From an uncultured Ruficoccus sp. (GTDB taxonomy: Bacteria; Verrucomicrobiota; Verrucomicrobiia; Opitutales; Cerasicoccaceae), in NCBI GenBank assembly GCA_965140785.1, contig OZ223519.1, forward strand, positions 64,001 to 128,000: a DNA stretch of 64,000 nucleotides, in the 5' to 3' direction. Made by a program: the position numbers and the translations under genes. Of the stretch, positions 13,792-40,057 are shown piece by piece. Below the pieces are notes generated by a model. It was not told the origin of the DNA. It was given only the letters and a program-made list of their open reading frames with translations, and searched no databases. The stretch's first letter is position 1, and each line of letters starts with the position of its first letter.

Positions 13792-13873
13792 TGACCGTGT
13801 CCACTTAAACTGTGCCACTTGCAAAGTTAGTCTGAGTGCTTAGAAAGGACTCAGAGTATGAAAGGCGAGCCAT
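13792..13873 (+). mobile_element. Isolated left end of the IS3-family element found at 35752
   Basis: TGACCGTGTCCACTTAAACTGTGCCACTTGCAAAGTTAGTCTGAGTGCTTAGAAAGGACTCAGA is identical to 35752-35815 and is followed by ATGAAAGGC; the match then breaks down. Confidence 0.9.
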
Positions 13874-35751: not shown

Positions 35752-35817
35752 TGACCGTGTCCACTTAAACTGTGCCACTTGCAAAGTTAGTCTGAGTGCT
35801 TAGAAAGGACTCAGACG

Positions 35818-36084
35818 ATGAAAGGCAAGCGATACAGTACAGAGCAAAAAATCCGCATTTTACGCGCCGCTGATGCTGGCAGAGCGATCGTGGATGTCTG
35901 CCGCGAGGCAGGGATCAGCGAGCAGACGTTCCACCGCTGGAAGCGGGAGCTTGGGATGCTGGAAGTCGATCAGGCCAAGCAACTGAAGGAACTGCAAAAG
36001 GAGAACGCTCGGCTGAAGCGTATGCTGGCGGACGAGATACTTGGTAAGGAGCTGCTGAAGGAGGCGCTCGAAAAAAAATGGTAA
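35818..36084 (+). CDS. IS3 transposase OrfA
   Basis: MKGKRYSTEQKIRIL...VCREAGISEQTFHRWKR...ENARLKRMLAD: HTH plus leucine zipper. Confidence 0.93.
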   Translation: MKGKRYSTEQKIRILRAADAGRAIVDVCREAGISEQTFHRWKRELGMLEVDQAKQLKELQKENARLKRMLADEILGKELLKEALEKKW

Positions 36085-37019
36085 GCCCTGCACACAAGCG
36101 CGAGATGGCGCAAACTCTGGTGTCGCAGGGCAGATGTTCAGCGCGGGCGGCCTGCCGTCACTTTGGGTTGCATCGCAGTACCTTCGGCTATCAGGCGAAG
36201 GAGACTACGCCCTGGTTGGCAAAGTTACGTGGGGCTTTGCGTCGCAAGAGCGAAGCGCATCCCGAGCTGGGTTACCCGAAAATCACTCATCTACTCAAGC
36301 GCGATGGTTGGGACGTAGGTAAGCGGCTGGTGCAGCGCCTGCGCCAGGAGATGGGGCTGAAGTGTCCGACTAAGAAGCCTCGTCAGCGTCGGCGCGGCCC
36401 CTCGACGGGCTTACCGACAAAGGCTACTCATCGCAACCACGTGTGGACCTGCGACTTCGTGGCCGACCGTACGGCTAAGGGCGGATCAATCCGCATGCTC
36501 ACGGTACTCGATGAGTACACCCGTGAGTGCCTGTGCATCCACGTCGATCGCCACCTCAACGCCGCCAAGGTGCGAGCCGTCATGAGCGAGTTGATCAGTG
36601 CCTACGGCAGCCCCGAGCACATCCGTAGCGACAACGGCAGCGAGTTTATCGAGAAGAGCCTGCGTAAATGGTACGCGGACGAGGAGATCAAGACGCTCTA
36701 CATTGAGCCGGGCAGTCCCTGGCAGAACGGCTACATAGAATCCTTCAACGGCAGACTCCGCGATGAGTGCCTCAACCGCGAGTGGTTTTATACGCTCACC
36801 GAGGCACGCGTGGTCATTGAGGACTGGAGGTGGAAATACAACAACATCCGCCCGCACCGTTCACTCGGACTGCTCACGCCGCTCGAGTTTGCAGCCAAAG
36901 AAACCGCACCAACCCCCTTCGACATCAACTTCCAAGGCATGGGCTACACTCGGGCTACGCCCTCCTTCCGCCCAAGCCTTGACACCCTCTACAACCTAAC
37001 CCTAGAATCACATCATTAA
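36078..37019 (+). CDS. IS3 transposase OrfB (DDE), -1 frame relative to OrfA
   Basis: WTCDF...LDEYTRE...RSDNGSEF...PWQNGYIESFNGRLRDE...YNNIRPHRSLG. Confidence 0.93.
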   Translation: MVSPAHKREMAQTLVSQGRCSARAACRHFGLHRSTFGYQAKETTPWLAKLRGALRRKSEAHPELGYPKITHLLKRDGWDVGKRLVQRLRQEMGLKCPTKKPRQRRRGPSTGLPTKATHRNHVWTCDFVADRTAKGGSIRMLTVLDEYTRECLCIHVDRHLNAAKVRAVMSELISAYGSPEHIRSDNGSEFIEKSLRKWYADEEIKTLYIEPGSPWQNGYIESFNGRLRDECLNREWFYTLTEARVVIEDWRWKYNNIRPHRSLGLLTPLEFAAKETAPTPFDINFQGMGYTRATPSFRPSLDTLYNLTLESHH

Positions 37020-37067
37020 CCCGCTCAGACTAACTCTCAATGCGGTACAGTTTGCGTAGGCAGGTCA

Positions 37068-38240
37068 CGGGTAAACCGATCGTTGATGTCTGCCGCGAGG
37101 CAGGGATCAGTGAGCAGACGTTCCACCGCTGGAAGCGTGAGCTTGGGATGTTGGAAGTTGACCAGGCCAAGCAGTTGAAGGAACTGCTGAAGGAGGCTCT
37201 CGAAAAAAAAATGGTAAGCCCTGCACACAAGCGCGAGATGGCGCAAACTCTGGTGTCGCAGGGCAGATGTTCAGCGCGGGCGGCCTGCCGTCACTTTGGG
37301 TTGCATCGAAGCACGTTTGGCTATCAGGCGAAGGAAGCTGCCCCTTGGTTGGCAAGGTTACGTGGAGCTTTGCGTCGCAAGAGCGAAGCGCATCCCGAGC
37401 TGGGTTACCCGAAAATCACGCGCCTGCTGAAAAAGGACGGCTGGGATATCGGTAAACGGCTGGTGCAGCGCCTGCGTCAGGAGATGGGGCTGAAGTGTCC
37501 GACCAAGAAGCCACGTCAGCGTCGGCGTGGTCCCTCGACGGGCTTGCCGACAAAGGCCACGCACCAGGGCCACGTGTGGACCTGCGACTTTGTTGCGGAC
37601 CGCACGGCTAAGGGTGGCTCCATCCGCATGCTCACGGTGCTCGACGAGTTTACCCGCGTACCGAACTGAGGCGAAGCCTCGGTGACAAAGCGCAGCGCCC
37701 ATGCCTGTGCATCCATGTGGATCGCCACCTCAACGCCGCCAAGGTGCGGGCCGTCATGAGTGAGTTGATCAGTGCCTACGGCAGCCCCGAGCACATTCGC
37801 TCCGACAACGGTTCGGAGTTTATCGAGAAGAGTCTGCGGGGTTGGTATGCCGACGAGGGCATCAAGACACTCTACATCGAACCGGGCAGCCCCTGGCAAA
37901 ACGGCTACATCTAGTCCTTCAACGGACGACTACGCGACGAGTGTCTCAACCGCGAGTGGTTTTACACGCTCACCGAGGCACGCGTTGTCATCGAAGATTG
38001 GCGCTGGAAGTATAACAACATCCGCCCGCATCGTTCTCTCGGACTGCTCACGCCACTTGAGTTTGCAGCAAAAGAAACAGCACCAGAACTCTTCGAAACC
38101 AACCTCCAAGGCATGGGCTACACTCGGGCTACGCCCTCCTTCCGCCCATGCCTTGATACCCTCTACAACCGAACACTCAATCACATCATTAATCCGCTCA
38201 GACTAACTCTCAATGCGGTACAGTTTGCGTAGGCAGGTTA
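37068..38240 (+). mobile_element. Degenerate IS3 copy 2 (left end missing)
   Basis: Begins mid-orfA directly after the IRR of copy 1. Has a ~60-bp deletion in orfA, a 43-nt insertion at 37659-37701, a TAG stop at ~37912, and an IRR ending ...GCAGGTTA. Confidence 0.92.
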
Positions 38241-38404
38241 GGTGTTTTTTCTAAAACATATTGTTCGATTTCTTTGCCGAAATAATTCTGACACTTGTCA
38301 CAAACCTTTCCTTTGAGCACTAAATCATCGTTTCCGAGTGACTCAGGAATAATATGCTCAATCGTTGAGAAAGGGCCATCGGCTTTGCAAAAAACGCATT
38401 TCAT
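38241..38404 (-). pseudogene. HNH endonuclease N-terminal fragment truncated by IS3 copy 2
   Basis: MKCVFC...EHIIPESLGN...VCDKCQNYFG is HNH_5-like; the frame runs into the IS right end. Confidence 0.75.
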
Positions 38405-38595
38405 GCTTGGACCTAATCTTTAAGAGCGATTCCCATCCAGTGCTTCGCGTAGCATGTTCAGATGATGTATGGTGGTCAAGTTTGGTGTTGAATTGTTACC
38501 GTTTGTTTGAACAGCGGAGACTCTGCATACCCCATACCTCCAAGACTGTTGATTTAGCTGGGCCGATTCTGAGGTGGTTTTCAGAAAAAGGGCCG

Positions 38596-39043
38596 GGATT
38601 TTTGGCGGGGGCATTGGGGCTGTGGAAGGGGGCGATTCTGGCGGTTGAAACTCAGAATACGGCTTTTGGAAGCGGGGTTGCGTAAGCTTTTGCTGGCAGC
38701 CACTTACAAAAAATCCCGCTCGGTGTGCGAGGCGGGATTTTTTGTGGCAGGGGTGGTCGGTGTGCCCGCGACAGGAAAAAGATGGGGTGGCAAGCGGGAC
38801 CGTCTTCGGAGGAATTCACGCAGTTCGGCGCCCCTTTCCGAACTCTCTTCAGACCTTTTATCGTTTCAGGGCCATAAAAGCGTGTCGTATTGACTCAATT
38901 TTGGGTTTTGTCAGACAGCGACAAGCGTCTCCTTTCCATTTCTGGGTTGGGCCTCGCGATAATAGTAGTTCAGCAAGTCTCCCAGCTGTGCGTGCTGGCT
39001 GACGCACTGCCTGTCACTTTTACAAATAGCTGAGGATTTATCG
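38596..39043 (-). mobile_element. 3' remnant of a second rve transposase element with its long non-coding flank
   Basis: 38783-39043 aligns with 28806-29044 (...LG.LLNYY.REAQPE...). 38596-38790 aligns with 17690-17882. Carries a 24-nt insertion at 38986-39009. Confidence 0.85.
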
Positions 39044-39048
39044 ACCTT

Positions 39049-40040
39049 AGCGGGAGTGTAGCCCATGTCCTGGAAGTTGATTTCGAAGAAGTCTGGTGCG
39101 GTTTCTTTTGCTGCAAACTCGAGCGGCGTGAGCAGTCCGATGGAACGGTGCGGACGGATGTTGTTGTACTGGGCGCTTCGCTAGTGTCGTCGTTACGCTC
39201 CTCGGTAGTCGGAGCGGATGTGCTCGGGGCTGCCATAGGCACTGATCAGTTCGCTCATGACGGCTCTGACTTTGGCGGTGTTGAGGTAGCGATCAACATG
39301 GATGCACAGACATGGGCGCTGCGCTTTGTCACCGAGGCTTCGCCTCAGTTCGGTACGCGGGTGTACTCGTCGAGCACAGTGAGCATGCGGATAGATTCGC
39401 CTTTGGCCGTGTGATCGGCCACTACCGAGCGCGGAGCGCGACATGACCACAAGAAAACAAGTCGCAGGTCCACACGTGGTTGCGATGAGTAGCCTTCATC
39501 GGTAAGCCCGTCGAGGGACCGTGCCGACGCTGACGAGGCTTCTTGGTCGGACACTTCAGCCCCATCTTTTGGCGCAGAGGTTGCGCCATCTCGCGCTTGT
39601 GTGCAGGGCTTATCGAGTCCGCGAGGCAGGACTCGCCATTTTCTCCGAGCGCCTCCTTCAGAAGCTTCTTGCCCAGTATCTCGTCGGCTAGCATGCGCTT
39701 CAGCCGTGCGTGTCAGGCCTTCTCGCTACGCTCGTGAACTCCTTTTGCAGTTCCTTCAGTTGCTTGGCCTGATCGACTTCCAGCATCCCAAGTGTCTTCG
39801 CTTTCGCTCGAGTGTCGCCGTGCCAATCGGCACAGGCTTGGTACGCGTTTCCAGCGGTGGAACGTCTGCTCGCTGATCCCCCGCCTCTCGGCAGACATCA
39901 ACGATCGATTGGCCCGCATCAGCGGCCCGTAATAGGCGGATCTTTTGTTCGGTACTGTATCGCTTGCCTTTCATCGTCTGAGTCCTTTCTAAGCACTCAG
40001 ACTAACTTTGCAAGCGGACCAGTTTAAGTGGACACGGTCA
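39049..40040 (-). mobile_element. Heavily degenerate IS3 copy 3 with six short insertions and two internal deletions
   Basis: IRL TGACCGTGTCCACTTAAACT at 40040. Aligns piecewise to copy 1; right end missing. Confidence 0.92.
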
Positions 40041-40057
40041 ATAATCGTCTTGTTGTC

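Follow-up and report, generated by a model that had tools for sequence, protein, structure and literature searches.

An identical 43-nt insert occupies the same codon in two diverged copies of an IS3-family insertion sequence (IS) in a 64,000-nt stretch of the genome of an uncultured Ruficoccus sp. (the window, G000:C48:64001-128000; G000 is the 50-contig draft genome of the source organism). We find that the 43-mer is one of a family of at least 23 short inserts in this genome, here called family A, and not the product of the two-event history that an earlier note on this DNA had proposed. The explanation that we favor, with about even confidence, is that the 43-mer belongs to a family of non-coding, hairpin-bearing, target-specific and non-autonomous mini-elements that are mobilized in trans, of the same kind as repetitive extragenic palindromic (REP) sequences and GC clusters.

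The insert pair and its IS3 host copies

The window contains the following IS3 copies and inserts.

35752..37067, forward strand: IS3-family copy 1, intact, with orfA at 35818-36084 and orfB at 36078-37019 and without a mini-element.
37068..38238, forward strand: IS3-family copy 2, a pseudogene that lacks its first ~130 nt and has 88% identity to copy 1.
37659..37701, forward strand: A1 mini-element of 43 nt in copy 2, which stands in place of AG/AA in the Glu codon of D-E-F-T-R-E-C-L and introduces an in-frame TGA.
39048..40042, reverse strand: IS3-family copy 3, heavily decayed, with several internal deletions and 81% identity to copy 1.
39170..39207, reverse strand: A4 mini-element of 38 nt in copy 3, whose right flank is the usual A4 site W-K-Y-N-N.
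39313..39355, reverse strand: A1 mini-element of 43 nt in copy 3, in the same codon of D-E-Y-T-R-E-C-L and identical (43/43) to the copy-2 element.
39422..39459, reverse strand: D-type insert of 38 nt in copy 3, unrelated in sequence to family A and placed just after the first catalytic Asp codon.
39793..39843, reverse strand: A3 mini-element of 51 nt in orfA of copy 3, which replaces AG of the Glu codon in W-K-R-E-L-G.

The identity of the two A1 inserts and their shared Glu codon were reported correctly in the earlier note, and the window holds no further match to the 43-mer at up to 3 mismatches. A MAFFT alignment of copies 2 and 3 gives 10 differences in the 58 nt upstream (the hand count had been about 10), 8 in the 58 nt downstream and none in the insert; outside the insert the copies are 75.7% identical over 767 aligned columns. 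The insert follows the G of the Glu codon in D-E-F/Y-T-R-E and reads g|TA CCG AAC TGA (the bar marks the junction), which confirms the in-frame TGA that had been described. Copy 1 reads CGT GAG TGC CTG at this site. The change had been taken for a simple insertion of 43 nt; the full 43-mer is present, but it substitutes for the AG of GAG, so that the net gain is 41 nt. A far more diverged IS3 copy outside the window (copy 4, G000 C48:54934) also has an A1 element at this codon, with 3/43 differences.

The intact copy 1 is one of 11 genome copies with at least 98% identity. Besides its A1 element, copy 2 has a TAG at 37912-37914, where the catalytic Glu of N-G-Y-I-E-S-F-N is expected, and copy 3 contains four mini-inserts (A3, D, A1 and A4). 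The assignment to IS3 is based on orfB, which scores 229 bits against NCBIfam NF033516 (cut-off 160) and has rve, rve_3 and HTH_21 domains; orfA matches HTH_Tnp_1, and there is a run of A's at the orfA/orfB overlap. Copy 1 and the 5'-truncated copy 2 are directly adjacent, with the border near position 133 of copy 2, and an orphan 82-nt left end of the IS (95% identity) lies 24 kb away at window positions 13792-13873. An intact copy beside an insert-bearing relic also occurs at C48:53047-55341.

Logan contigs from two runs of the same organism contain the insert. Run X2 has both an insert-bearing contig (depth 3.6) and an AG-joined empty contig with copy-2-like flanks (depth 3); the site may be polymorphic in that culture, or the empty contig, with just 30 letters to one side of the joint, may derive from a different copy or organism. 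An orthologous empty locus was not found in the sister species G003, in which the matches end at the IS borders. The window copies are inverted and only 1.6 kb apart in a 50-contig draft, so an assembly error or a coincidental duplication between neighboring IS copies was considered. We regard this as scarcely credible, as none of 100 shuffles gave a match at up to 3 mismatches, the 23 family members are spread over 6 contigs, and both a second species of the genus and independent contig assemblies of two runs also have the insert.

Architecture of family A

Members of family A are 38-51 nt long and share one layout: a 5' TACCGAR, a variable perfect hairpin, YGACA, a GCGNAGC mini-hairpin and a 3' CA. 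A strict pattern recovers 14 copies in G000, and a loose regular expression recovers 23 in four subfamilies on 6 contigs. A still looser expression adds two chance matches and one possible fifth variant, TACCGAGCGAAGCGACACTCGCAAGCGCAGCG, at C39:123442, where it adjoins an IS3 relic. The four subfamilies are as follows.

A1, 43 nt: TACCGAAC-TGAGGCGNAGCCTCGG-TGACAAAGCGNAGCGCCCA.
A2, 38 nt: ends as in A1, with the shorter hairpin CTGCGAAGCGG.
A3, 49-51 nt: hairpin CCTGTGCC-loop-GGCACGG, with the 3' part CGACACTCAAGCGAAGCGAAGACA.
A4, 38 nt: TACCGAGGAGCGTAGCGACGACACTAGCGTAGCGCCCA.

All 23 copies start with TACC[G/A]A after a flanking G (that is, GTAC), have a GCGNAGC unit near the 3' end and finish with CA; the stem begins 6-8 nt into the element. 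Sequences of the form d(GCGNAGC) make exceptionally stable DNA mini-hairpins. A1 is predicted to fold into two hairpins, one with 8 bp and a GNA loop and a mini-hairpin with 3 bp (-13.5 kcal/mol as RNA and -7.8 as DNA), and the predicted fold of A3 reaches -14.4 kcal/mol. The first hairpin is in the same place in the predicted folds of A1, A2 and A3, with stems that differ in sequence yet remain complementary; the predicted fold of A4 is different and weaker. A2 is stop-free and keeps the reading frame (+36 nt), and A3 copies have lengths of 49, 50 and 51 nt. Rfam (E up to 1) and ARAGORN, run on 10 of ~160 loci (4 + 6), gave no match on the element. We also looked by eye for complementarity between the subfamily-specific parts and their flanks and saw nothing convincing.

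Variation within subfamilies is concentrated in the loops. In A1, most differences fall on the middle base of the two GNA loops, with only five changes scattered elsewhere; in A3, most fall in the 3-4-nt loop. Such a distribution would be expected if only copies with intact stems and intact ends propagate.

Genomic placement and the junction rule

A second IS also hosts family A. It is designated F2 and encodes a single 357-aa rve-type transposase, which scores 89.6 bits against IS3 (cut-off 160) and 87.3 bits against IS481 (cut-off 224) and passes for rve_3; since it falls below both cut-offs, we file it only as an rve-type DDE transposase. All 23 elements lie within the 41,682 bp (0.96% of the genome) that are homologous to IS3 orfA/orfB or to the F2 transposase. 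Every one is in transposase coding sequence and in sense orientation, and none is paired. Of 249 occurrences of the motif GARTGYCTS in the genome, 214 are outside IS DNA, where no element is found.

Comparison of filled and empty copies gives six non-homologous site classes.

Class i, IS3 T-R-|E|-C-L/H: filled in copies 2, 3 and 4; empty in copy 1, in C25a, C25b and C49, and at C10:628668.
Class ii, F2 V-E-|E|-N-R: filled by A1 in at least six F2 copies or derivatives; empty in two intact F2 copies.
Class iii, F2 K-R-|E|-C-L: filled in A2 copies; empty in the two intact F2 copies.
Class iv, IS3 orfA K-R-|E|-L-G: filled in A3 copies; empty in copy 1.
Class v, IS3-like R/Q-D-|E|-C-L-N/K: filled in A3 copies; empty in copy 1.
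Class vi, IS3 W-|K|-Y-N-N: filled in A4 copies; empty in copy 1.

The same junction rule, G|AR, is seen in all six: the G is retained, the next AG (AA in class vi) is gone, and there is no target duplication. The favored target is G|AR|TGYCT, the DNA for the conserved E-C-L motif, and TGYCT is present in 7 of 10 distinct right flanks. Sequence-specific placement, which the earlier note had suggested, is thus well founded. Its proposal on copy 1 was not. This copy had been suggested as a possible escape variant with CGT before the site, but the filled F2 site K-R-E-C-L reads CGT G|, an empty site has CGG G-AG (C10:628668) and empty contigs have CGCG-AG-TGCC, so the CGC-versus-CGT idea fails. 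The note had also named the occurrence of the 43-mer in unrelated target contexts as counter-evidence; the genome-wide search places it, with 2-3 changes, in the different transposase family F2, which is such a context.

Elements are also found at the junctions of internal deletions. Two F2 derivatives (C26:178767 and C26:99297) join the left flank of site ii to the right flank of site iii, and two IS3 derivatives (C10:469905 and C39:139356) join the orfA site to the R-D-E-C-L-N site. The A4 element of copy 3 sits at another such junction, as it has the S-D from the region of the second catalytic Asp on its left. These structures would be explained by deletion adjacent to an element or by recombination between two elements. 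A search for a donor locus or an autonomous parent, by blastn-short of the 43-mer and by separate searches with its ends, returned only IS-borne copies, together with three chance matches in ordinary genes and one 5'-truncated A4.

The main rival to mobilization in trans is recombination only, in which each insert type arose illegitimately once or a few times and spread by gene conversion or template switching and by IS transposition, with no dedicated machinery. We give it a substantial minority chance. It would account for the confinement of all 23 elements to IS DNA when the 214 look-alike motifs elsewhere have none, and most sites are in the best conserved E-C-L DNA, which diverged IS lineages have in common. 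The F2 copies are clear mosaics, and a two-base replacement is a natural outcome of copying a donor segment between flanking homologies. However, the G|AR rule also applies at six sites without flank homology (e.g., V-E-E-N-R, orfA K-R-E-L-G and W-K-Y-N-N). The flanks of copies 2 and 3 first differ 8-9 nt left and 3 nt right of the insert, which would confine a conversion tract to about 55 nt or less with almost no perfect homology. The loop-confined variation and the complementary stems across subfamilies point instead to selection on the element itself. Gene conversion, which the earlier note had offered as one route of spread, remains a live contributor, as the F2 family is visibly mosaic.

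F2 copies and the state of the interrupted genes

The 43-mer, with 2-3 changes, is present in at least six F2 copies or derivatives in V-E-|E|-N-R near the N-terminus. The two intact F2 copies read GAG GAG AAC at this site, so the AG is replaced in the filled copies. Four F2 copies have an identical A1, yet their genes differ at a synonymous divergence (dS) of 0.43-0.54, with a ratio of nonsynonymous to synonymous divergence (dN/dS) of 0.08-0.16. Between insert-bearing copies dN/dS is 0.08-0.25, as low as the 0.07 between intact copies. Another disabling lesion is present in all four insert-bearing F2 copies examined.

C26:132667: a 25-nt frameshifting B insert.
C26:163978: a +1 frameshift and an ATT start.
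C4:167503: a stop codon, and the last ~55 codons unalignable to the family.
C4:236765: truncated.

The F2 copies are mosaics in which tracts of near-identity lie beside diverged tracts. Because of the other lesions in 4/4 copies and this mosaicism, the low dN/dS does not prove function and is no evidence that the interrupted genes work; it is explained by late acquisition, with divergence that mostly predates the inserts.

These observations bear on whether the insert could be a recoding cassette, that is, whether ribosomes skip the 43-mer in F2 V-E-E-N-R and the genes stay functional. The T4 gene 60 coding gap and the mitochondrial byp elements combine matched take-off and landing codons, a stop after take-off and a hairpin within an otherwise intact open reading frame (ORF). 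At the F2 site, AAC is followed by UGA within the 5' arm of the 8-bp hairpin, and a native Asn codon (AAC/AAU) comes directly after the insert in the correct frame. The insert-bearing F2 genes have a dN/dS of 0.08 over a dS of 0.43, A2 is in frame and stop-free, and like bypass elements the insert is small and mobile. In contrast, the IS3 sites offer no matched landing codon, so that the take-off codon, the stop in the hairpin and the landing codon come together only at V-E-E-N-R, in host genes that are otherwise broken. The three lengths of A3 and the stops in several variants also argue against selection for frame, and late acquisition in mosaic copies accounts for the low dN/dS. We consider recoding very improbable.

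Age and relationships of the inserts

Sequence comparison shows that the inserts either arose after their host IS copies had diverged or evolve without linkage to that divergence. Between copies 2 and 3 there are 0/43 differences in the insert and 18/116 in the flanks; between copies 2 and 4, which are 57% identical, there are 3/43 and 41/116. The earlier claim that insertion post-dates divergence therefore stands in a wider form, in which the insert may instead evolve independently of the IS copies. Copy 4 has A1 and lacks the type B insert described below, and the mutually identical C25a, C25b and C49 copies have a 25-nt B in N|G-Y-V-E and lack A1, although copy 4 differs from them at only 50/647 positions. 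At C10:628668, the left flank is as in copy 4 and the site is empty. These four relatives without A1 have about 92% identity to copy 4, so the presence of A1 does not track the phylogeny of the IS. The presence of A and B thus varies among close relatives, which indicates that inserts come and go. The earlier note had asked whether insert-bearing copies form one clade; on pairwise alignments they do not, since copy 4 groups near insert-free copies and far from copy 2. Among 16 genomes of the taxonomic family, no relative of copy 2 exceeds 86% identity and no homolog has an insert.

The middle bases of the two loops define variants of A1. The window copies have A/C, four F2 copies have T/T, and both copy 4 and the sister species G003 have C/A. 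One and the same C-to-T change accompanies C/A in an IS3 copy of G000 and in an F2 copy of G003, so variant lineages do not track host lineages.

Other small inserts in the same genes

Two further insert types occupy these transposase genes. Type D (38 nt) is present in five IS3-like copies in all, at G000 C48:54830, C25:52063, C25:73939 and C49:1533 in addition to copy 3; it shows at most 2/38 differences although the host copies are only ~55-80% identical, and its removal restores the frame in the C25 copies. Type B is palindromic, 24-25 nt long, with the sequence GGCGGRCG..CCAGCCCGCCC, and lies in N|G-Y-x-E just before the catalytic Glu in two IS families (F2 at C26:133456, C26:164767 and C4:146381; IS3-like at C25:52370, C25:74246 and C49:1263). 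Of the two lengths, only 24 nt keeps the frame, and a GGC repeat may flank the insert. A 23-nt insert with GCGAAGC is also found just 5' of the ATG in one upstream-sequence type of F2 (C26:163906, C4:236693, C4:167431, C26:99228, C26:178699 and C48:110785); an intact copy of the same type is without it.

The inserts could conceivably have a host or IS function, as plugs placed to silence transposase genes in a defense-like manner or as self-restraint by the IS. They are exclusively in transposase genes and at catalytic-core motifs, at least three unrelated types fall at three motifs (A at E-C-L, B at N-G-Y-x-E and D at the first catalytic Asp), and A1 in its T/T form leaves none of the three reading frames open. 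Against such a role, no gene or system that goes with the inserts was found, the 11 active IS3 copies and the two intact F2 copies remain uninterrupted, and the survivorship of a selfish element would give the same outcome. We view it as improbable.

Distribution in other genomes and metagenomes

Among 60 relatives, the strict pattern matches only in G003, the second species of the genus, and decayed A3 copies are present in G003 and G001, which have one or two decayed copies, whereas none was found in G002 or G004. Across 185,579 species genomes, the strict pattern matched 6 stretches with unrelated sequence between and around the motifs, one of them in a 785-aa ORF, and we read these as chance. 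A metagenome scan gave 23 stretches in ~8 sequence groups, with the family architecture only in L030 and L043. The module in these two (L030:273-310 and L043:1501-1538) reads TACCGAGC, a perfect 6-7-bp hairpin, then CGACAAAGCGNAGCGCC; it lies ~190 nt downstream of a tRNA-Ser and is followed by a repeat of the last ~17 bases of the tRNA, like a miniature integration scar.

A sample of 401 genomes of the phylum gave 22 matches in G000 and one each in 15 others, and a reversed-pattern control gave similar scattered singles; only the single match in G252 proved real. In the genus of G252 (g151, same phylum), 13/16 genomes contain 1-6 copies of TACCGAGG-hairpin-CCCC-AGCGAAGCG, and the reversed control gave 0. 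These modules have the 5' TACCGAG of family A and at least five different complementary stems, and lie within low-copy composite intergenic repeats. The composite repeats (L116, L143-L145 and L149-L160) are built of the modules TTCGCGCCTCGCGGT, GAGCGCAAGCGAGCT, the A-like module and GGACGCGAAAGCGTCC; some form short arrays with 50-170-nt spacing, and Rfam finds nothing in them. The g151 and metagenome modules are probable relatives of family A and would place it among REP-like hairpin modules.

Comparison with known systems

The closest analogs are the GC clusters of yeast mitochondrial DNA and, among bacteria, REPs and Rickettsia palindromic elements (RPEs). The portions of PMC8811140 used here describe GC clusters as optional inserts in var1 that spread unidirectionally and have loop-biased substitutions; the clusters are recombination hot spots at which intervening DNA is deleted, and one yeast shows translational bypass. 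Like them, family A is short, palindromic and GC-rich, lies in coding sequence, has AG at the target, concentrates its substitutions in loops and is associated with deletions between copies. According to the same portions, GC clusters differ in being organellar, mostly intergenic and not specialized on transposases, and they have AG/TAG duplicated at both ends, whereas family A loses AG/AA. We claim no sequence relationship between the two.

As described in the relevant parts of PMC3733652, PMC3479197 and PMC6006769, REPs, hairpin-forming REP doublets (REPINs) and bacterial interspersed mosaic elements (BIMEs) are hairpin repeats of 20-65 nt with a short 5' motif by the stem, exchangeable stems and no target duplication, all of which they share with family A. 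The related-looking A-like modules in g151 moreover form BIME-like intergenic mosaics. These parts also report that REPs can lie within genes and that the verrucomicrobium Opitutus terrae had the most intragenic GTAG REPs in the survey. REPs are numerous, mostly extragenic and often in inverted pairs, and the parts of the sources used do not report that they replace target bases or specialize on IS genes. The 23 copies of family A are neither extragenic nor paired, their 5' end is (G)TACCGAR with no GTAG/CGTC foot tag, and G000 has no REP-associated tyrosine transposase (RAYT) gene flanked by family A repeats (no REPtron).

Hairpins of class 3 TnpA-Y1 enzymes have a 5' CnGA foot, and the class 3 genes are found mainly in Planctomycetes, Acidobacteria and Proteobacteria, according to the parts of Quentin et al. 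2018 (PMC6006769) that treat them; there the repeats are high-copy, unlike the 23 copies of family A, and flank their own transposase gene. CCGA, a CnGA, is present in 21/23 family A copies, 1-2 nt 5' of the stem and not directly at it, and two copies have CCAA or differ. Planctomycetes are related to Verrucomicrobiota.

The ends of family A, TACCGA.. and ..GCGCCCA, are not inverted repeats, and two target bases are lost and not duplicated, unlike in a MITE (a miniature transposable element with inverted repeats). Palindrome-associated transposable elements (PATE-like) derived from IS200/IS605 have subterminal hairpins at both ends and insert 3' of a fixed tetra- or pentanucleotide, without duplication and without loss of target bases. 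Family A also has two hairpins and no duplication, and, read antisense, 7/10 distinct flanks end in RCA before the element, but its consensus on the left flank is loose and its target loses two bases.

RPEs are likewise palindromic repeats within ORFs; as cited in PMC3733652, they are longer, in frame and in functional proteins of many unrelated genes, whereas only A2 of family A is in frame and its hosts are pseudogenized transposases. The account of REP-targeting ISs in PMC12288879 (e.g., ISPpu9) gives another specific association of a hairpin repeat with an IS, with the relation reversed, as the family A hairpin sits inside the IS.

Family A thus differs from REPs in tag, location and the lack of a REPtron, from MITEs in its ends and the lack of duplication, and from bypass elements in that the host gene is not intact. 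A literature search with subscription journals outside its coverage gave no report of hairpin mini-inserts specialized on transposase genes, of a G|AR replacement rule, or of co-occurrence with two other insert types at other catalytic motifs.

Proposed mobilization

We propose that an enzyme acting in trans would insert the elements by recognizing folded hairpins in single-stranded DNA, by analogy with REPs and IS200/IS605 ends. Rare primary insertions would then be multiplied by IS transposition and by recombination between ISs. An out-of-frame, stop-bearing insert would kill the host in an ordinary gene, whereas in a transposase gene it would cost the host nothing or even help it, and this could be why the elements survive only in IS copies. 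Copies 2 and 3 would represent the entry of one A/C loop variant into two IS3 copies that were already diverged and probably already dying. HUH enzymes work on single-stranded DNA hairpins, rely on a short motif next to the stem and cause no duplication (as set out in the relevant parts of PMC6006769 and PMC3479197). These traits fit the anatomy of the elements, including CCGA before the stem; they do not explain the loss of two bases.

The genome of G000 encodes only two HUH-Y1 (RAYT-like) genes by PF01797, in 1006-bp units that are 99% identical and encode a 309-aa protein. The units (L147:1407-2412 and L148:1407-2412, on C10 and C43) are flanked by inverted GGGGTCAG..AATAATTTAAAT, and a gene-less GGGGTCAG..AATAATTTAAAT pair lies 500 nt downstream in L148. 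PF01797 has no match in G003, G001 or G252. The RAYT-like genes were rejected as the mobilizer, as their flanking repeats are unrelated to family A.

Several points weigh against mobilization in trans. No mobilizing enzyme was identified, as the two Y1 genes of G000 carry an unrelated repeat, and searches with the separate ends did not find a longer element that shares them. The confinement of all elements to IS DNA fits recombination between ISs as well as it fits purifying selection, and the mosaic F2 copies indicate that gene conversion operates among IS copies. We know of no insertion by HUH, DDE or serine/tyrosine recombinase enzymes that replaces two target bases. Such a replacement is also absent from the parts of PMC6006769 and PMC3479197 that concern insertion. 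The data contain no direct new insertion or excision event, and the empty contig of run X2 may be another copy or organism. The homology of the g151 and metagenome modules is not proven, as it rests on two short motifs that are the search pattern itself.

Implications

A stronger view, which we put forward tentatively and consider possible rather than probable, is that family A (and perhaps B and D) are hyperparasites that home to the DNA of rve transposase motifs, insert by a novel G|AR swap chemistry, knock out the IS and seed deletions. If true, a natural brake on IS expansion would be carried by 40 nt of DNA, with short non-autonomous IS derivatives as a further product. Hairpin repeats such as REPs and GC clusters are common and their movement is still largely unexplained, and family A offers filled and empty sites that compare unusually cleanly, an exact junction rule and a location in transposase genes only. 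Should the elements insert themselves, they would rank with the smallest mobile DNAs known and would form a second layer, of parasitism or of control, on ISs by a reaction without described precedent. If they spread by recombination only, short inserts in conserved motif DNA would sweep through diverged IS families and drive their decay to deletion derivatives.

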